From a virus, in IMG/VR virus record IMGVR_UViG_3300031949_000004, positions 158,224 to 194,181 of that record: DNA of 35,958 nt. One strand, 5' to 3'. A program made the translations under genes and the position numbers. This document shows positions 8,395-35,123 of this stretch, piece after piece. The notes below the pieces were generated by a model. The model was given only the letters and a program-made list of their open reading frames with translations. It was not told where the DNA came from and searched no databases. Within the stretch, counting starts at the first letter, position 1; every line of letters starts with the position of its first letter.

Positions 8395-9603
8395 ATGAGC
8401 TACTTTGCAACACTACGGCAATTGCCCTCCATGCTCGACGCTTTCGGGCGCCTGCGCACCTCCGACCCGCACGCGCTGTTCTCATCCGCCCTGCTCTACG
8501 ACAACGCACCGTTGCTCTGGAACGACGTACAGATCTCCGGAGCTGGAACCTCCTCGACCTACAACACCAACCAGTCAAGCGTCACGCTCGCCGTCTCGGC
8601 CGCAACCGCCGGCCGCCGCGTGCGACAAACCTACCGGCGATTCCTCTACCAGCCCGGCAAAAGCCAGCTCGTCAGCCTGACGGGCATCATCGGCACCCCG
8701 GCTGCGGGCATCACACGCGGGCTGGGGATCTACGATGATGCCAACGGCGTGTTCTTCCAGTCCTCGCCCACGACCGTCAACGTCGTCATCCGTTCATCCA
8801 CAAGCGGGGCGCCGGTCGACACTGTCGTCACCCAGGCCAACTGGAACATCGACAAGATGGACGGCAGCGGACCATCCGGCGTAACCCTCGATCCAAGCAA
8901 GGCGCAGATCTTCTTCCACGACTTCCAGTGGCTCGGCGTGGGGCTCGTACGCTTCGGATTCGTGGTCGACGGCACCTTCTGGCCCGTGCATGCCGAACCA
9001 CACTCCAACCTCACAACCCTCGTCTACATGTCAATCCCGAACCTTCCGCTGCGCTACGAGATCGCAAACAGCGGCGCGGGTGGCGCGGCATCGCTGCTTG
9101 CAATCTGCAACTCCGTACTGTCGGAAGGCGGCATCGAATTCGTCGGACAAGTGCGCACGGCGAGTCGCAACATCACACCTCTCGTCACCCTGAACGACAA
9201 TGATCTCTATCCACTTGTCACAATACGACTGCAAGCAACAAAGCTATCAGCAATCGTTCAACCGTCATCACTATCCGTCCTGTCGACGACAAACGCCAAC
9301 CTAGAGCTGCAATTGTTGCTCAACCCCACGGTGACCGGCACCGCACTGGCATTCTCGGCAGTGACGAATTCCGCCGTCGAAGCCGACGTTGTCGCTACCA
9401 ACGCAACCAAAGTCTCCGCCGGCACCTTGCTCACCTCCGCCCTCGTGGCCGCTCAAGCCTCGATCACGCTCCCAAACCCGGTTGAGTTCCAACTCGGCTC
9501 CTCCATCGCGGGCGTAAGCGACATCCTCGTGCTTGCCGTACGAAGACTAACCGGCGCGGCTGAAACCATCTACGGCACTATCGGCTGGCGCGAAAGCAAC
9601 TAG
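8395..9603 (+). CDS. hypothetical beta-rich Ser/Thr/Gly/Asn-rich protein (402 aa), possibly structural
   Basis: Ribosome-binding site GAGGAAA. Composition typical of virion or surface beta-proteins. No recognisable enzymatic motif. Confidence 0.55.
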   Translation: MSYFATLRQLPSMLDAFGRLRTSDPHALFSSALLYDNAPLLWNDVQISGAGTSSTYNTNQSSVTLAVSAATAGRRVRQTYRRFLYQPGKSQLVSLTGIIGTPAAGITRGLGIYDDANGVFFQSSPTTVNVVIRSSTSGAPVDTVVTQANWNIDKMDGSGPSGVTLDPSKAQIFFHDFQWLGVGLVRFGFVVDGTFWPVHAEPHSNLTTLVYMSIPNLPLRYEIANSGAGGAASLLAICNSVLSEGGIEFVGQVRTASRNITPLVTLNDNDLYPLVTIRLQATKLSAIVQPSSLSVLSTTNANLELQLLLNPTVTGTALAFSAVTNSAVEADVVATNATKVSAGTLLTSALVAAQASITLPNPVEFQLGSSIAGVSDILVLAVRRLTGAAETIYGTIGWRESN

Positions 9604-9604
9604 G

Positions 9605-10054
9605 ATGCCTCGCCCCCGACAAAATCGTCCCGCAACGACGTTCACCTGCGGACACGGACATGTCCACAAGAGCCTCGACGATGCCCTCTACTGCAACCGC
9701 GACCTGCCGCTCACGGAAGAACAGGCCATCGCGCTCGGTCGAACGTGCTCACCAACCCAGATGGACATCTTGCGACACCTCATCACCGGCGACGAACCCA
9801 TGGCCTACTTCAAGGGAGGATTCTGGTCCCTGCCTTCCATCGGCCAGGATACCGATCCAACGTCCAACCGATCATGGGAGGGGCACTGGTACGTCCAAAT
9901 CCAGTCACTCATGGCCCTCGAAAGAAGTGGTATTCTGGGAAGACTCGAAACGGCAACCAACTACGACGCAACCCGGTATCCGGGCCTACGTGATTTCGTT
10001 CTCACCGAACGCGGCCTCCTGGTCGCGCGACTTCTAACAGGAGAAACCCCATGA
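9605..10054 (+). CDS. hypothetical protein (149 aa)
   Basis: ORF immediately after the previous stop. Overlaps the next start by 4 nt. Confidence 0.5.
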   Translation: MPRPRQNRPATTFTCGHGHVHKSLDDALYCNRDLPLTEEQAIALGRTCSPTQMDILRHLITGDEPMAYFKGGFWSLPSIGQDTDPTSNRSWEGHWYVQIQSLMALERSGILGRLETATNYDATRYPGLRDFVLTERGLLVARLLTGETP

Positions 10055-10920
10055 AAGAGCCAGTACAAGGCAAATGGCAGCAGGTCTCCGGCGACATGAG
10101 CTTCGATAGCCACGGCCTCGTGCTCGGCAAAGACGAGGGCAGCTACGTCGAGCTGGTCAAGATCGATCCATGGCTGGAAATGGACTCCGCCGCTCTGAGA
10201 GATGGCTACGGCTTCTGGGACGTCAGCACGACTTCCATCGACAAGGACGACATGGGCATCGATCGCGACGATGTCAAATCGGCCATGAGCTACGTCGGTA
10301 TGAAACCCGAAGAATACGAACAACTCGCACCGCTCTACAAAGCCGAGATCATCGCTAACGCCTCGGGCTACGAAGACAGCCGATCCACCTCGGACTACGC
10401 CGACGCCCTCCCCGCGCCCATCGAAGAGATCGAGTTCTGGGGAGGCCCCGGCTCGAAGTACAACGTGGCGAGCATCAACGACGAGATGCGCATGGCCGTG
10501 GTGAACAAGCTCTACGGCGGCGACTTCGACGAGGACGATCTCCCCGACGACGAGGCCCTGGAGCTGGCCTGGGGCGACGACGAACCTCGCACCTTCGAGA
10601 TCTCGGAAGACCAAGCACAAGCCGTGCGCTACGCCGTCGCCGTGGCCCAGAACACCTACGACTGGCCGGCACCCAAGCACGATGACACCAAACTCATCGT
10701 CGGCAAGGCCAACTTCCAGCAGCTCCTCGAATTCCTGAAAGCCGCACCCGAAAGCGCAGATCTACCTGCCGAAACCATCACCAGACTCCAGGCTGCCTAC
10801 GAGGACTCATTCAAACTCGACTGGGAAAACAAGCGCGAGCAGGTTGCCTACATGATCGACGAGGACGCCAAGGAAGCCAAGAACCTGATCAAAGACCTGC
10901 TCAGCACACTCGGATTCTGA
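10051..10920 (+). CDS. hypothetical highly acidic protein (289 aa)
   Basis: Asp/Glu-rich stretches (DFDEDDLPDDEALELAWGDDEP). Start coupled to the previous gene. Confidence 0.55.
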   Translation: MKEPVQGKWQQVSGDMSFDSHGLVLGKDEGSYVELVKIDPWLEMDSAALRDGYGFWDVSTTSIDKDDMGIDRDDVKSAMSYVGMKPEEYEQLAPLYKAEIIANASGYEDSRSTSDYADALPAPIEEIEFWGGPGSKYNVASINDEMRMAVVNKLYGGDFDEDDLPDDEALELAWGDDEPRTFEISEDQAQAVRYAVAVAQNTYDWPAPKHDDTKLIVGKANFQQLLEFLKAAPESADLPAETITRLQAAYEDSFKLDWENKREQVAYMIDEDAKEAKNLIKDLLSTLGF

Positions 10921-27817: not shown

Positions 27818-29566
27818 CTATATCTTACGGAAAACCTCAGATCCCGAAAGTGCTCCACCCTCCCGCTCGTCCGGCACAACCCGAAGGTCGAGAAATCGCG
27901 ATGCACTCCGGAGCAGATCGATGTCGATCCTGTCCGTCTTCTTCGCGGTCGCCAGACGCTTGGCCAGCTTGAGCAGGTTCTTGATGTTCCTGCCCGAAAG
28001 CTTCCCCAGCGGATGCGTATGCAGCTCCCGGAGCGTCCCGTCAGCGAACACAATACGAAACTGATTGGCAAGGATCTGCCAGATCTCAATCGCCTCCACC
28101 ACGGTCGGCAGATTGTACCGGATCCAAGCCGTCGCCCTCGACATGATGGCATCGTCGATGATCGTCGCCCGGTTGCTCGTCAAGAACAAAATCCCTCGGT
28201 AGTATTCGAGCACGCGAAGGAACACACCCACGATGGCATTCTGCTGCACGTCGTTGCCACGCTCGTGGACATAGACATCCGCCTCGTCGATAAGCAAAAT
28301 CGCCCGCCAGCGCGCCGCCCGTTCGAGCACCTGACGAAGATGCTTCTCCAGAACTTGCTCGTTCGTGCCGAGCTGGGAGCACTGCACGACGTAAAGAGGC
28401 TTCTCGATCGTCTCGGAGAACACCTCGGCGGTGAGCGTCTTCCCGGTCCCTGGAGGTCCGGTTGCGATGATGATGGTCCCGCCCGTCTTGCCCGCCACGA
28501 TGTCGTCAAGTTGATCTACCGAACCCGACACCAGGATATGGATCAAGTCCTTCGTGTCGGTCGGCAACACGAGCTTGTCGAACAACGACTTGTCGTAGGC
28601 ATACGGTTCTAGGTTCCGGACATGAATGTCAACGTACTCATGCTTGTCCAGATCGAAGACCTGCACGTAGGGATGAAGTGGCAGGGAAACGGTGTACTTC
28701 TCATCATCATCGTCTTCGTCTTTGGCACTCCAGAACTTGCTGGAGACGATGCCACTATCAGCACGGTTATGCCGAGAGCGCGACCGCCCATCCTCATCAT
28801 CCTCATCATCCTCGTCCGCCAGATCGTCCATCACGACCTTCGCCGCCATGCCCTCACGCTCCATCGCGATGATACTCGCACCCCAACGATGCGCATAGTT
28901 GGAGATAGCCTGACCAACGGCGCGGAACTGATCACCCGTCCGTGGCTGGTACGACTTGTAGAGGGCAACGTCATCCTCGTACCTCGCCACGGCCTCCTGG
29001 GTCTCCAGGAAGTAACCCTTCTCCTCAAGCAACTCCACCACGTTGCAACCCTTGTCCAGATCCTTCCGATGCCACACCAGAGCGTCGTGCATGTTCTCCC
29101 CTCGCGAAAACCCCTTCAGCGAAACGCTCGTGCTCGCCGGATGCTCACCGCCGCGACTGTGCTCCGCCTCGTGAAATTCGATCTTGGAAACGAAATGGGG
29201 GACCACATGGCCATCCGACAGCTCGTGAAAGAGCCACTTGCGCGGACTCGGCGCGATGTACGTCTTGAGCACGGCCGCAAGAGCTTCGAGCGTCTTGATT
29301 CCCTTGCCCTTCGGATCTGCCTTCAAGGCAACGTAGGTGTTCGCCTTGCGAAACGCCCCAAGAAAAATCGTTTCACTCTTGCTCTCCTCCTTGAGCCACG
29401 CGACCAGGTTGTACAGATCACCGGGCGCCAGCTCTTCGAGCGACAATCGAATCCGACGCTCGTCGCCGCCATAATGCTGCTCCAGCTTGAGGGCGATGAG
29501 CTTCGACTTGCAACCGATATCCTTGACGAACCTCTGGAGGTGACTCTTCGCGATGTCGATGTTCAC
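27818..29566 (-). CDS. classic-clade AAA+ ATPase with unrecognised 350-aa N-terminal region (582 aa, GTG start)
   Basis: Walker A GPPGTGKT. Walker B ILLIDEAD. Sensor-1 FLTSN followed by a second-region-of-homology-like NRATIIDDAIMSRATAWIRYNLP. Acidic low-complexity linkers (DEDDEDDEDG, DEDDDDEKY). Ribosome-binding site GAGGAG 7 nt before the GTG. Confidence 0.8.
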   Translation of the reverse strand: MNIDIAKSHLQRFVKDIGCKSKLIALKLEQHYGGDERRIRLSLEELAPGDLYNLVAWLKEESKSETIFLGAFRKANTYVALKADPKGKGIKTLEALAAVLKTYIAPSPRKWLFHELSDGHVVPHFVSKIEFHEAEHSRGGEHPASTSVSLKGFSRGENMHDALVWHRKDLDKGCNVVELLEEKGYFLETQEAVARYEDDVALYKSYQPRTGDQFRAVGQAISNYAHRWGASIIAMEREGMAAKVVMDDLADEDDEDDEDGRSRSRHNRADSGIVSSKFWSAKDEDDDDEKYTVSLPLHPYVQVFDLDKHEYVDIHVRNLEPYAYDKSLFDKLVLPTDTKDLIHILVSGSVDQLDDIVAGKTGGTIIIATGPPGTGKTLTAEVFSETIEKPLYVVQCSQLGTNEQVLEKHLRQVLERAARWRAILLIDEADVYVHERGNDVQQNAIVGVFLRVLEYYRGILFLTSNRATIIDDAIMSRATAWIRYNLPTVVEAIEIWQILANQFRIVFADGTLRELHTHPLGKLSGRNIKNLLKLAKRLATAKKTDRIDIDLLRSASRFLDLRVVPDEREGGALSGSEVFRKI

Positions 29567-29617: not shown

Positions 29618-29872
29618 CTAATCGAAACGCCTCTCACACACCAGGTCGAATTCGTCTAACCCTTCCGTTTCAGACGATATCGGATGCAACTGCACGCATC
29701 GCGGATCAACAGCCTCACACTCTGCTCGCGAACCGTACCAGTATCCAACATGTGCATGATTGCCATATCCGCTTCCACCATCATCGTCCGTATAAACAAC
29801 CGCGCGGCAACCTCCAGCATCGTATTCGACATACTTTTTCAATACCTGCATCATCCCTGTCCTCGCGAACAT
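29618..29872 (-). CDS. small hypothetical protein (84 aa), first gene of the AAA+ operon
   Basis: The conserved element sits 25 nt upstream of the ATG. Confidence 0.4.
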   Translation of the reverse strand: MFARTGMMQVLKKYVEYDAGGCRAVVYTDDDGGSGYGNHAHVGYWYGSRAECEAVDPRCVQLHPISSETEGLDEFDLVCERRFD

Positions 29873-29927: not shown

Positions 29928-30137
29928 CTATCTGAGCCGGTAATGCCTACTCAGATGCAGTCGGATAACTTCCTCGACGGTCGACGATGGGCAACCTTTG
30001 TCGTGGGCGCCGAAAGCCCTGAAGAACTTGCGGGCAATCGCAATAGTTACGCCTGTTTCCTCGGCAGCGTCCTTTGTCGAGGCGCCATTTGCCCAAAAAT
30101 GCCCGAGCTTGCGAATGATAGGTCCGTGCGTTCTCAT
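29928..30137 (-). CDS. small helix-turn-helix protein (69 aa)
   Basis: GASTKDAAEETGVTIAIARKFFRAFG is a helix-turn-helix similar to IS3 OrfA / terminase-small / excisionase-type N-terminal domains. Ribosome-binding site GAGAGGAG. Confidence 0.5.
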   Translation of the reverse strand: MRTHGPIIRKLGHFWANGASTKDAAEETGVTIAIARKFFRAFGAHDKGCPSSTVEEVIRLHLSRHYRLR

Positions 30138-30167
30138 CGTTGTTCTCCTCTCGAATCACTTGGGATT

Positions 30168-30185
30168 GTCAACCGGATAAGCATG
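30168..30185. promoter_or_regulatory. conserved upstream element (GTCAACCGGATAAGCATG), 28 nt upstream of the 30137 start
   Basis: Full 20-bp context GGGATTGTCAACCGGATAAGCATG. Confidence 0.5.
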
Positions 30186-30253
30186 AAAGAAAGCTCGCGG
30201 ATTCTGCTCTTCGCGCCCAACCTTGGCCTCCAGCTCCGCCACTCGCCAGGCAT

Positions 30254-30520
30254 CTACAAGACTCTTCGAGATCGCCCTCTCGAACAACGCCACCGGATCC
30301 ACGGCAAGCGCCCTGAAGAGCCTCCGCGCGTAACCGCCAAATCAATAACCTTCTCCCGATACACTGCCCGAACTTCATCCGAACACACCAACCAACACGG
30401 CGGTATCTCACCCTTGATCCGACTTTCGACCCGCATCAAGTCGTGCGCCGCCGCATCGAGCGCGGTCAAGATCTTCTTCTCCTCGACGGTGAATGTTACG
30501 GTCGCCTTCGGCATCGTCAT
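30254..30520 (-). CDS. hypothetical small protein (about 88 aa; C-terminal third may be non-coding read-through)
   Basis: Ribosome-binding site AAGGAGG. GTGA/ATG coupling to the upstream gene. The C-terminal 25 aa are Arg/Gly/Ser-rich and junk-like. Confidence 0.35.
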   Translation of the reverse strand: MTMPKATVTFTVEEKKILTALDAAAHDLMRVESRIKGEIPPCWLVCSDEVRAVYREKVIDLAVTRGGSSGRLPWIRWRCSRGRSRRVL

Positions 30521-30548
30521 CACGGCTTCCCTCCTTCCGGCTTCGACA
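30519..30548. repeat. 30-bp gene-junction module (C-terminal codons + ribosome-binding site + GTG start), copy 1; copy 2 at 30702-30731
   Basis: TCACGGCTTCCCTCCTTCCGGCTTCGACAA compared with TCACGGCTTCTCTCCTTCAGGCTTCGACAA. This gives two adjacent proteins the same ..SKPEG(G/E)KP C-terminus. Confidence 0.7.
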
Positions 30549-30705
30549 ACCTGGAATCCATCGAATCACGCAGAGGCATCACCTGATGCTCGGGTTGACC
30601 AACCCCAACACACTTCACACCGCCCGGCCCCACGTGCGGCTCCAACCGCCGACTCTTGGAGAAACCCACCACGCGCCCGCACCACGGACACTTGACGGTG
30701 TTCAC
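30520..30705 (-). CDS. small zinc-ribbon protein (61 aa, GTG start)
   Basis: CPWCG...C..G. GTGA overlap with the upstream stop. Confidence 0.4.
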   Translation of the reverse strand: MNTVKCPWCGRVVGFSKSRRLEPHVGPGGVKCVGVGQPEHQVMPLRDSMDSRLSKPEGGKP

Positions 30706-31046
30706 GGCTTCTCTCCTTCAGGCTTCGACAAATCCACGCCCCGCGATCCCACCCGGCGCAGCATACTGGCGGTCGCCGGAAACTCAAACATGACGGTGTC
30801 GGCCGCCTGCAAGCAGGTCACCTCCGCCAAGACACGCGCCTTCAACCGCCGCAAGATCTCGTGCTTGAGAGACTGACGAACCTGGTGGTTGAAATCGTCC
30901 GCGCCCGCCTTCCTCGCGCCCTCCAGGCACAGCACCGTGTACGACTCGACCAACTCCTCGTCCGCCATCACAGCAAGCGATTTGCTCACCAGATCGCCGC
31001 TCGCTGCCGTCACGAAGCTCGCAGCCTTATCCGTGGACACCATCAC
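30702..31046 (-). CDS. hypothetical protein (114 aa)
   Basis: GTGA/ATG coupling to the upstream GHKL gene. Confidence 0.45.
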   Translation of the reverse strand: MMVSTDKAASFVTAASGDLVSKSLAVMADEELVESYTVLCLEGARKAGADDFNHQVRQSLKHEILRRLKARVLAEVTCLQAADTVMFEFPATASMLRRVGSRGVDLSKPEGEKP

Positions 31047-32542
31047 GATTCCTCCCCACCAAAGAGACTGGGCGACTCCATCGCCACCCCCGCAGCCTCC
31101 GCGCCCAGGCGACAGAGAGACTGATGGTAGGCGCTGTCGAGATGCTGCCCCCAGTGGTGCCCCAACTCATGAATCAACAACTCGACCTGCGCTTTCCAGT
31201 TGATCTTGGTAACGAGCCACCTGTGACCAAGCAACCCCACGTTGAAGTAGAGCTGCCCGGAATCCTCTCCAAACCGCGAATAGGCCGCCCGGAACTTCCA
31301 GCCACGATCGGGCGTGAAAGCCACCCGCACAGCGAGACCCGCGCACCGGCTGGCGAAACACTTGACGAAGCTCTCGAATACCACCATCGCCAGCGTCCAC
31401 TGCTCGCGAGCGATGAGTTCCAGCGGCTCTCCGCCCGGCGAGAAGGGCTTCGGGCTCGGCGTCACCTGCCCGGCTGGCTTGAGCACGCCCATCTGGCGAA
31501 TGTTTGCCCACGCATCGGCCGAAAACGTCCCGCCCGGTACCACGGTGTACCCCTGCGCCACGGCCATGTGCGTCCCCTCGCGGTCGCTCGGATCCGAGAT
31601 CACGGCCCGCTCACCGAAGCGCGCCGTCACGATCGTCTCGACCGTCCTCGGCGCCACCACCTTCGAGCCGAGCACCGCACTCACCCAGGGCTGCTTCGCC
31701 AGCTCACTCGACAACGGCAGCTTGCGCATCACAACCTCGTTGAGCACGGCGACCAACAAGGCCAACAGGTACGAGGGCTTCACACCGTCGCGCTCCATGC
31801 TGAGCGGCACCTTCTGACCGATATCGATGTGCCAGGGAACGCCGGCCGGAAGATCCACCACAGGGATCCCCATCTCGTAGAGCTTCGCGCTTTCGTCCGC
31901 GAATCGATGGTAGAGAGAAACCCCGGTCTCCCGCTTGAACTCCCGAAGATTCCCGCCAGCATCGGCCTCGACGGTCGGCAACTGCATCCGGAAGGACAAC
32001 ACGATCTTCGGCGCCGGAATGGCGACACCATTCAAGTAGGTTCGACACGTGGACGGCGGGATCACATAGGAAATCTCGCGAATCATCACCTCGTACTCTT
32101 CGCGCGTCATCCGAACCTGACCAAAAAACTGAGTCCCCGACGATCGGCACTTGCGACGATTGATCTGCCGTCCTTCCGTCGTGAAGGACACCGTGCCCCT
32201 GGTCGTCGAGATCTCCGCCCGCTCACACAAGGCAAGCACCAACTTCTCGCCGAGATTGAAGCGGCCCCGCAGCTCGGGCGCGACCTTCTTGGCCGACGGA
32301 GCGAAGAGCGTAAATGCGTGAGTCAGATCTGAAAAACCGTCCGGATCCTCGTCGGTCACACGAAGAAAAATCTCGGGCTTGCCCGTCACGGGCTCCGTCA
32401 TGATCCGCACCGTACCCGCCGCCTTGCAGTCCCAGGCGTTTTGCAGAAGCTCGTGCAGAATGAAAACCTTGCCCTTGCGCTCGACGAGCTGGGCAAGCCC
32501 CGCCTTGTCGACCTCGAACCACGACGCTTGCTTTTTTGCCAT
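31043..32542 (-). CDS. GHKL/Bergerat-fold ATPase-like protein with C-terminal HExxH motif (499 aa)
   Basis: N-box FILHELLQNAWD fits ExxxNAxD. G-box-like TDEDPDGFSD and RGRFNLGEK. C-terminal IHELGHHWGQH is SprT- or ImmA-like HExxH. Ribosome-binding site GGGAGA before the ATG at 32542. Confidence 0.65.
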   Translation of the reverse strand: MAKKQASWFEVDKAGLAQLVERKGKVFILHELLQNAWDCKAAGTVRIMTEPVTGKPEIFLRVTDEDPDGFSDLTHAFTLFAPSAKKVAPELRGRFNLGEKLVLALCERAEISTTRGTVSFTTEGRQINRRKCRSSGTQFFGQVRMTREEYEVMIREISYVIPPSTCRTYLNGVAIPAPKIVLSFRMQLPTVEADAGGNLREFKRETGVSLYHRFADESAKLYEMGIPVVDLPAGVPWHIDIGQKVPLSMERDGVKPSYLLALLVAVLNEVVMRKLPLSSELAKQPWVSAVLGSKVVAPRTVETIVTARFGERAVISDPSDREGTHMAVAQGYTVVPGGTFSADAWANIRQMGVLKPAGQVTPSPKPFSPGGEPLELIAREQWTLAMVVFESFVKCFASRCAGLAVRVAFTPDRGWKFRAAYSRFGEDSGQLYFNVGLLGHRWLVTKINWKAQVELLIHELGHHWGQHLDSAYHQSLCRLGAEAAGVAMESPSLFGGEES

Positions 32543-32661
32543 GACCAGTTCTCCCAGTTCTCTACGTACCGTACCGCCGTTCAAATTACCTGTCCAGAAA
32601 AATCCATTTCTACGTCACAACACCTTGACGACCTAGCTCGAACTCTCTGACTGCTGCTTCA

Positions 32662-33923: not shown

Positions 33924-35123
33924 GTTCGTTCCTCCAGTTCGCACAGTTCACTGACAGCGCCTACAGTCTACACAAATCCGAATAAGCTGGCCAGAAAAAA
34001 CGCGGAAAATACCTGAACGTGTTATCAGTGTCGATAACCGGCACCCCGAGCCCACACCACCGCACCGAGAGCCCCCCAATACCGCGCCCGAGCACGCTTC
34101 TCACCGCAGCCGCACGGCATAAAATCGGAAACCCCTCGACATCGTTCAACAAACCACCACCAAACATTCAAACACCCTCCGACAGTAATCGCCGCTACAA
34201 TCCACAACCTAGCGACATCGCACAGGAATCCAGCACATTCTACCACGAAACCGCGTCATTCATCTTACGACGCAGCAGCGTTACGCGTGTAAGTAATTGA
34301 CGGCAATAGTGTTTTAGCAAGAAGGGCGGTTTTCTGCAACGTCCCATCGCCATCAACCCACTGCATTATACTGGCAGGAAAAACCACTAATAATTAATTC
34401 CCAAGCAATATCATCAACTTCTACTCCACCTCTCAACCAGTTTCGAGACCATAATCCCGCCGCACCGTCACATTTGTAACAACCCGGTACGTTACGAGTG
34501 TACCAAACCTCCCAATCTTTTCCTGACCGATTTAATACATGGTTGCCTACATTTCCGTCACACTTCACCACATGCCCCCACCTTTTGCCAATTTGGCAAT
34601 TTGTGACGCAACACAAACGCCGTTTGGCACAACCACCCACCTAGCAATTCCCACTACTTATACCATCGTATGACAAAAATTGTCATTGATGTGTGACGGC
34701 AAAACTGACAGACCACGCTGACTCACTAAATCAGGACATCTCCACTCCTTTTCCTACACCACCACACATCTCCCACCCCGACTTTGACACTCCCGCGTCG
34801 AAACCGGACAGAAATGTCGCGAAAATCGCGTCAATTCGCAAACTGAAAATGACTACATGAACCTACTTCACAAATGTTCAGTGACTACTCCTACATGTCG
34901 CACTACCCTCCGGCCTCCCTTGAACCTATCCCACTCAACCCGTTAACCTCCCACTAACTCCCACTCACTACTACACAAGCCTACTCCTACATCCGCTGTC
35001 CCATGCTACACTATCCCACTTACACCCTTACCCCCAGCCCTCCCCCCTCCTCCCCGCCACCCGCCCAACCCAGCGCGCCATCCCCCAGCCTCCGGCCCAG
35101 GCCACGCCCCACGGTCCCCCCGC

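Follow-up and report, generated by a model that had tools for sequence, protein, structure and literature searches.

Enzymes of the GHKL type are known from Hsp90, MutL, MORC and the type II topoisomerases, in which ATP closes a lid and the N-terminal domains dimerise into a clamp. Wss1 and SPRTN are, for their part, DNA-dependent proteases, and every well-studied ATP-dependent protease that we know of couples proteolysis to an AAA+ unfoldase. Here we describe a protein of 499 amino acids (aa) in which a GHKL ATPase and a Wss1-like zincin metallopeptidase are fused in one polypeptide. It is encoded in a stretch of 35,958 nucleotides (positions 158,224 to 194,181 of the IMG/VR virus record IMGVR_UViG_3300031949_000004), which is called the window below and to which coordinates refer unless another contig is named. 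The fusion apparently represents a large, undescribed phage protein family, its architecture and the family itself being new and its two catalytic folds being known.

The gene lies on the minus strand at 31043-32542, stop codon included, and was delimited from its open reading frame (ORF), its homologs and an AlphaFold model. It starts at an ATG (MAKKQASW...); a TTG upstream, at 32584, would give a product of 513 aa, but in the alignment the homologs all begin at the ATG (MAKKQ) and not at that TTG. The first 145 residues (32108-32542) form a GHKL (Bergerat) ATP-binding domain recognized by its motifs, which are the N-box LHELLQNAWD (aa 29-38), with E31-L-L-Q-N35-A-W-D38 at 32429-32452, the G1 box D64...G69-F70, the lid HAxTLFAxSxKK, the G2-like box R92-G-R-F-N-L-G-E-K100 and G116-T. 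This domain is followed on the same strand by a transducer domain of the ribosomal-S5-domain-2-like type (aa ~146-252, 31787-32107), with a Q243-K244 loop at 31811-31816, and by a middle alpha/beta-helical domain (aa ~253-355, 31478-31786) with conserved W286, G310, D317-P-S-D320-x-E322, G331 and W345. A conserved linker, P356-A-G-Q-V-T-P-S-P364, and a flexible stretch (together aa 356-380, 31403-31477, as seen in the alignment and in the predicted local distance difference test, pLDDT) lead to the zincin-like metallopeptidase domain (aa ~381-499, 31046-31402). This last domain carries the sequence IHELGHHWGQH (aa 457-467), that is, H458-E459-x-x-H462...H467 at 31142-31171, and conserved H473 and C477.

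The AlphaFold2 model, for which an alignment of 37 homologs was used as input, is confident (pLDDT 88.5, predicted template modelling score 0.77), with lower pLDDT in the ATP lid between the G1 and G2 boxes (63-75) and in the linker, where it falls to ~65 at aa 361-370. The N-terminal part shows the alpha/beta sandwich of the Bergerat fold. Motif I of GHKL enzymes (ExxxNxxD, in which Glu is catalytic and Asn binds Mg) is present as E31/N35/D38, and motifs II and III appear in variant forms, D64-E-D-P-D-G69-F70 and G93-R-F-N-L-G98-E-K100, which are 96-100% conserved. Structural matches to GHKL enzymes with a transducer span both domains over 200-270 aa, which, together with the conserved Q243-K244 loop, would fit a transducer that offers a Lys to the gamma-phosphate of ATP, and the closest matches of the GHKL part are DNA-acting enzymes. 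By motifs and fold, the protein belongs to the GHKL superfamily, and it could not be placed in the MutL, MORC, Hsp90, sacsin or topoisomerase subfamilies. For the zincin domain the closest structural matches are peptidases (Wss1, minigluzincins, M48 and Spartan), and a zinc motif of the form HExxHx(4-5)H stands within a minimal zincin fold, as in Wss1/WLM and SprT-like proteins; the fold of the domain resembles that of Wss1/SprT, and so does the motif in most family members. A sequence-only reading of this DNA had pointed to the N-box, the G-box-like motifs and the terminal HExxH, and had made its proposal depend on a GHKL fold of the N-terminal region and on the HExxH lying elsewhere than in a non-globular, non-conserved tail. 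The proposal stands in these respects, as the motifs are 99-100% conserved in 256 members, the GHKL fold is predicted with confidence and the HExxH belongs to a globular, conserved domain.

A word-indexed search returned more than 2,000 homologs, essentially all of 480-510 aa and with 95-100% of the query covered, and an exhaustive profile search gave 2,362 clusters at 50% identity (E<=1e-3) and 1,218 at E<=1e-30, nearly all of 470-520 aa and matching end to end. Among 256 diverse members, E31, N35 and D38 of the N-box, D64 and G69 of G1, and G93 and K100 of the G2-like RGRFNLGEK are 100% conserved, Q243 of the transducer loop is conserved in 98%, and H458, E459, H462 and H467 in 99%. The HExxH was found in 263 of 266 members, with the third His at +6 (the Wss1-type HExxHx5H) in 191 and at +5 in 54, the window protein included. 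With both active sites 99-100% conserved in one fixed architecture, both catalytic centres are under strong purifying selection. Residues P356, A357, G358, V360, T361, P362 and S363 of the linker are also invariant in the homolog alignment. This proline-rich PAGQVTPSP segment stands directly before the zincin domain and leads into the low-confidence linker, and it might be an auto-inhibitory, self-cleavage or docking motif.

Canonical inteins with inserts of the LAGLIDADG type interrupt five homologs, whose lengths are 750-823 aa. In four of these homologs (P0148, P0225, P0227 and P0251) the intein, of the form C...SHN/C, is inserted between WHVDV and (C)QKVP, right before the invariant Q-K loop, and in P0223 an intein of the form A...THN/C follows directly the G1 box DxxPDGF (equivalent to G69-F70 of the window protein). 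Inteins typically home into the most conserved, functionally essential motifs of ATP-binding and DNA-metabolism proteins, and their insertion at these two sites thus marks both as functionally critical. Six more members, free of inteins, have Cys-Gln-Lys at the Q-K-loop insertion site.

Scans against Pfam, PADLOC, PHROGs and NCBIfam gave no above-threshold match for the 499-aa protein, only weak ones to DUF3143 and to sacsin domains. In the Pfam scan, HATPase_c_3 (PF13589; threshold 25 bits) had no match in the protein itself, and the homologs P0026, P0047 and P0101 scored 27-28.5 bits, barely over the threshold; for the sacsin domain (PF25794 / NF047352; cut-offs of 32.8 / 50 bits) the score was 21.5 bits for the protein and 17-29 bits for homologs. 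Matches to the WLM and SprT-like Pfam models were absent both for the 499-aa protein at E<=1 and for five homologs at E<=0.1, and the Pfam and NCBIfam models of ImmA/IrrE (COG2856) did not match the 499-aa protein either. A helix-turn-helix (HTH) gene, the usual company of ImmA/IrrE, adjoins a family gene in only 2 of 150 immediate-neighbour cases. From the SprT/ImmA-like assignment that had been made for the peptidase, the SprT half is maintained on the basis of fold, and for the ImmA half there is no signal. The defence-component hidden Markov models of PADLOC-DB v2 gave no match to the 499-aa protein at E<=1, and the ArdC architecture, an N-terminal ArdC single-stranded-DNA-binding domain followed by a C-terminal zincin, is not that of this protein. 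Sequence searches of the PDB, either with the single sequence or with a profile, were uninformative, the weak matches to ParA/ParF and myroilysin being noise or confined to the motif. Pfam, PHROGs, NCBIfam and PADLOC contain no model dedicated to the family. Full-text literature searches on GHKL, zincin, polyvalent-protein and anti-defence topics found no description of a GHKL-zincin fusion, and the accessible parts of the jumbo-phage, polyvalent-protein and MORC papers of the Aravind group do not mention it, in agreement with the earlier impression that the architecture was undescribed.

The window is phage DNA. Its plus-strand block (1-21.7 kb) holds the virion genes, including one for a virion structural protein (phrog_1645, E 3e-93), and the 499-aa gene belongs to a minus-strand, non-structural block (~22.5-34 kb) of unannotated small genes and one AAA+ ATPase; the other minus-strand genes of the window had no informative Pfam matches. 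Among deposited phage genomes a single family match was detected, in a 485-kb uncultured phage. The family is common in phages from metagenomes: IMG/VR provided 90 confirmed loci, many on contigs of 200-460 kb, and 55 loci were found among 185,579 species-representative genomes. These 55 belong to Proteobacteria, Acidobacteriota, Verrucomicrobiota, Planctomycetota, Chloroflexota, Actinobacteria, Bacteroidota and Saccharibacteria, with a few in cultured strains of Roseomonas, Falsiroseomonas, Piscinibacter and Solirubrobacter, among them Roseomonas oleicola ROY-5-3 (L098), Falsiroseomonas sp. HW251 (L105) and Piscinibacter sp. MQ-18 (L133).

All the ORFs at up to 5 kb from a family gene were clustered for 144 loci, corresponding to 109 lineages when these are delimited at 65% identity. 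The neighbours found in the largest numbers of lineages were a SNF2 helicase (7 of the 109 lineages), a tyrosine integrase (6) and a PAPS-reductase-like protein (5), and in a Pfam census of the 150 ORFs immediately upstream or downstream (75 lineages) no family appeared more than three times, the top one being integrase, with three. No conserved operon partner emerged from the 109 lineages or from the 150 immediate neighbours, supporting that the GHKL-zincin protein is a stand-alone unit. Where neighbours are annotated, they typically serve replication, recombination or nucleotide metabolism, with examples such as dUTPase, RecA, DNA ligase, thymidylate synthase, ParB, SNF2 helicase and a DNA polymerase exonuclease; an AcrVA2-like gene and prophage-edge genes (integrase, methylase, HTH) were seen as well. 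The AcrVA2-like gene (PF26125; JGI 3300078620, 9472-10506) overlaps by 8 nt the 3' end of the gene for the homolog P0019, a hint, from one phage contig, of an anti-defence neighbourhood.

The function that we favour, to which we give slightly better than even chances by analogy with the homologous folds, is that of a protease gated by ATP and complete in itself, which would act, early in infection, on a host protein or on one associated with DNA. As in Hsp90, MutL, MORC and type II topoisomerases, the GHKL domains would dimerise N-terminally upon ATP binding to form a nucleotide-gated clamp, the lid being closed by ATP and the gamma-phosphate being sensed by the transducer Lys. The clamp cycle would capture or position a substrate for the built-in C-terminal protease, or would gate the protease itself, and the substrate, a DNA-bound or host protein (of defence, of the nucleoid, or covalently trapped), would be cleaved during early infection. 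A DNA-bound or host target is favoured by the Wss1/SPRTN-like fold together with the early, replication, nucleotide-metabolism and integrase genes found nearby. Several observations weigh against this proposal. For ATP-dependent dimerisation, for proteolysis and for any target the basis is homology of fold, and the 499-aa protein remains below threshold with every sequence model. No DNA-binding domain was identified in it, and the third His of the window clade is at +5 and not at the Wss1-type +6. The neighbourhoods are heterogeneous and mostly unannotated, and their early, DNA-associated character is read from the annotated minority. Finally, one chromosomal copy in an Acidobacteria genome stands alone beside serS, with no obvious phage genes near. 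A more ambitious proposal, which we hold to be possible but rather unlikely, is that the family constitutes a new class of ATP-dependent proteases, in which a dimerising GHKL clamp instead of an AAA+ ring gates a Wss1-like zincin, used by phages, and especially by huge ones, to take hold of DNA or of a client and to remove host proteins that are bound to DNA or covalently trapped. The targets would then be defence nucleases, nucleoid proteins or DNA-protein crosslinks, and the system a counterpart, in viruses of prokaryotes, of the eukaryotic Wss1/SPRTN pathway.

Other functions can be accommodated by the same folds, and we consider them less likely than an ATP-gated protease. The protein could be a chaperone-protease like Hsp90 or sacsin, devoted to phage folding or virion maturation through the trimming of structural or scaffold proteins and acting neither on DNA nor against the host; this is unlikely, as the window gene is placed in the non-structural block away from the virion genes, its annotated neighbours in other phages are not head or tail genes but serve replication, recombination or nucleotide metabolism or encode integrases, and it is GHKL enzymes acting on DNA that give the best structural matches. 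The vicinity of integrases, DNA methylases or Mrr-like genes to some family copies would fit a prophage factor for defence or exclusion that benefits the host, in the manner of the GHKL/MORC proteins of restriction-modification islands, or a rIIA-like one, with the peptidase as effector. GHKL/MORC ATPases are known from restriction-modification contexts (PMC2292703), and Foldseek matches to rIIA-like phage proteins were obtained at E ~1e-8. We nevertheless regard such a factor as quite unlikely: PADLOC gave no match, the family abounds in huge phage genomes that look lytic and had only the 55 matches cited above among species-representative ones, and neither a sensor nor an effector recurs as a partner among the neighbours. 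It is also conceivable that the HExxH domain is not a protease, being instead a metal-dependent nuclease like YbeY or a structural or regulatory zinc site within an ATP-dependent nucleic-acid enzyme. The Glu of the HExxH, which serves zincin peptidases as catalytic base and does not belong to the H-x3-H-x5-H motif of YbeY, is conserved in 99% of the members, and the top structural matches are peptidases, which makes this possibility very unlikely.

The remaining alternative comes from the sequence-only reading, in which the 499-aa gene and three short coupled genes behind it were taken as a plausible signalling, immunity or DNA-processing module with a duplicated gene-plus-coupling unit at its junction. 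The layout that it described is correct, as three short ORFs follow the 499-aa gene with overlaps of 1-4 nt. Each has a GGAGG-type Shine-Dalgarno sequence just upstream, and the first and third accompany the big gene in the relatives L005, L006, L007 and L008 (72-89% identity), where the order is big gene, ~105-114-aa ORF and ~112-113-aa ORF, with the AAA+ gene directly next in L005-L007. Outside this clade the small genes are missing, and no neighbour is found in more than 7 of the 109 lineages, in such a manner that the homologs keep both domains of the big protein but only the close relatives keep the small genes. The zinc-ribbon gene, proposed as a functional partner of the ATPase-peptidase, is missing even in L005-L008, and its homologs elsewhere come without a GHKL gene; such a partnership is therefore unsupported. 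In addition, the proteins of the first two small genes have only their tails in common and the last gene is frameshifted in the window. A four-gene module is thus largely refuted, and we give it hardly any credit.

The first of the small genes (30702-31046, minus strand) encodes a lineage-specific protein of 114 aa from a GTG or 113 aa from an ATG, with homologs in L005-L008 only and no match in Pfam, PHROG, PADLOC or NCBIfam. The second (30520-30705, minus strand) encodes a 61-aa C2HC zinc-ribbon protein (KCPWCG...H...C). Both end within a 30-nt direct repeat, 28 of whose 30 bases are the same between 30702-30731 and 30520-30549, and which gives the two proteins the ending SKPEG(E/G)KP, as the sequence-only reading had noted. 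The first copy (30702-30731, minus strand) comprises the last nine codons, LSKPEGEKP, with a GAAGGAG Shine-Dalgarno sequence and a GTGA stop/start overlap; the second (30520-30549, minus strand) comprises LSKPEGGKP, a GGAAGGAGG Shine-Dalgarno sequence and GTGATG, and corresponds to the single ancestral junction of the relatives. A degenerate pattern of 27 nt made from the repeat matches these two sites only, with no match in 100 shuffles. The 114-aa and 61-aa proteins are not paralogs, their alignment being confined to the shared tail. In DNA alignments L005, L006 and L008 have a single junction, and the window and an identical ENA contig, L001, have with respect to the relatives a 182-bp insertion bounded by both junction copies. 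The family of the 61-aa protein is small and is defined by a C2HC zinc ribbon with the core KCPWCGRxVGFSK...LEPHVGPGGVKCVGVGQP, and its eight homologs found elsewhere, one of them in an unrelated phage context, have other tails without SKPEGGKP, supporting that this tail derives from the recipient junction. Therefore, what had been taken for a recent duplication of a gene with its coupling unit is a recent 182-bp insertion of an unrelated, mobile zinc-ribbon gene, with the 30-bp repeat as its scar at the coupled boundary. Formally, the repeat could also have been the substrate for deletion of the 61-aa gene in the relatives. The junction constitutes a clean example of the insertion of a small accessory gene at a translationally coupled boundary.

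The last small gene (30156-30523, minus strand) had been taken for an 88-aa gene; that ORF exists (88/89 aa, 30254-30523, minus strand), but it is only the 5' part of a frameshifted gene whose 3' part lies in ORF 30156-30302. With respect to L005, L006 and L008, the DNA alignment shows 2 additional nt near 30315-30330, which account for the frameshift. The product is intact in the relatives (112-113 aa), and the 112-aa protein of L005 matches both window ORFs, the conserved C-terminus (DPVALFERAISKSLVDAWR...) continuing in the second one. The same +2 frameshift is present in the independent ENA contig L001, and the gene could be a pseudogene, a case of programmed shift or the product of a shared assembly error. 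Two more small ORFs, of 84 aa (29618-29872) and 69 aa (29928-30137), lie on the minus strand between the frameshifted gene and the AAA+ gene, and both are missing from L005-L007, where the AAA+ gene comes directly. Evidently, the stretch behind the 499-aa gene is prone to insertions, and the small genes are lineage-specific cargo and not partners. A scan for promoters and terminators around the genes gave nothing above the shuffled expectation.

The AAA+ gene further downstream (27818-29566, minus strand) encodes a classical, IetA-like ATPase of 582 aa (Pfam AAA 5e-16; PADLOC IetA 7e-17; phrog_29662 1.6e-86), phrog_29662 being annotated as 'ATP-dependent protease'. A homolog was found near the GHKL-zincin gene in only 4 of the 109 lineages, those being the window clade, L049, L050 and L062, with ~40% identity and at 0.4-1.8 kb downstream of the family gene (L050 7806-9557, L049 9220-10857, L062 8307-10151). 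In L050 both the GHKL-zincin and the AAA+ proteins are ~40% identical to those of the window. The small proteins of L049 and L050 were considered as possible homologs of the window small proteins and are not homologous to them. The recurrence of the AAA+ neighbour could be a remnant of synteny or reflect some loose link in function. A pairing of this kind resembles that of Wss1/SPRTN with Cdc48/p97, an analogy on which we do not rely.

A second protein of 450-460 aa is encoded within ~1 kb of the family gene in some huge phages (L024 3495-4874, L026 8535-9974, and similarly in L009 and L037). Its sequence shows the N-box and G2 box of GHKL enzymes (ELVQNAKDAE...GKFGEGLK) and, C-terminally, a HEVAH motif, and when a 448-aa jumbo-phage representative was compared to the family, the link made by hhalign was limited to the N-box and the G2 region (E 0.022, probability 2%). 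Possibly this is a remote paralog built on the same plan, a hint that GHKL-HExxH combinations may be broader than this family. As regards base composition, the GC skew of the window is negative in every 1-kb bin (-0.07 to -0.40) despite the switch of coding from the plus (1-21.7 kb) to the minus strand (22.5-34 kb), and the bin 34001-35000, with few long ORFs, is extreme (GC 0.50, skew -0.40).

ParE, GyrB and T6 gp39, MutL, MORC, Hsp90/TRAP1 and the sacsin SRR proteins have GHKL domains accompanied by Toprim, endonuclease, CW or Hsp90-type client and co-chaperone modules, none of which is present here; furthermore, GHKL-plus-transducer ATPases have a G1 box of the form DxGxG, whereas that of the GHKL-zincin protein is DxxPxGF and its C-terminus is a peptidase. 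Among phage proteins, those like T4 rIIA also have an N-terminal GHKL domain and were matched by Foldseek at E 1e-8 to 1e-6, but they are longer (600-850 aa), their C-terminal regions are variable and unrelated, without a HExxH domain, and the TM-scores are of 0.2-0.37.

On the peptidase side, the Wss1 and SPRTN families (WLM and SprT-like) differ in that the GHKL-zincin protein has no sequence-level match to their Pfam models and that its third His is at +5 in the window clade. In those proteins the zincin is accompanied by SHP, VIM, SIM, UBZ or DNA-binding modules, whereas here it is fused to a GHKL ATPase. The likeness makes it possible that phages have a machinery of their own to clear DNA of proteins, and if so this would be relevant to how phages replicate and counter defences and to how the eukaryotic DNA-protein crosslink proteases arose in evolution. 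ArdC, the anti-restriction protein of conjugative plasmids, is also borne by mobile elements and also ends in a Wss1/SPRTN-like zincin domain, and by analogy with it a counter-defence role is plausible for the GHKL-zincin protein. The scale of the family adds to its relevance, as about 2,400 clusters at 50% identity, from phages of at least eight bacterial phyla and enriched in huge phages, have been lacking a family model.

The AAA+ proteases FtsH and Lon resemble the GHKL-zincin protein in having ATPase and protease in one polypeptide, and FtsH is also a HExxH zincin. Their ATPase is, however, a hexameric AAA+ unfoldase, whereas here it would be a GHKL clamp, from which processive unfolding and translocation are not expected. 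The conserved fusion of such a clamp to a zincin would represent a mechanistically different coupling of ATP to proteolysis.

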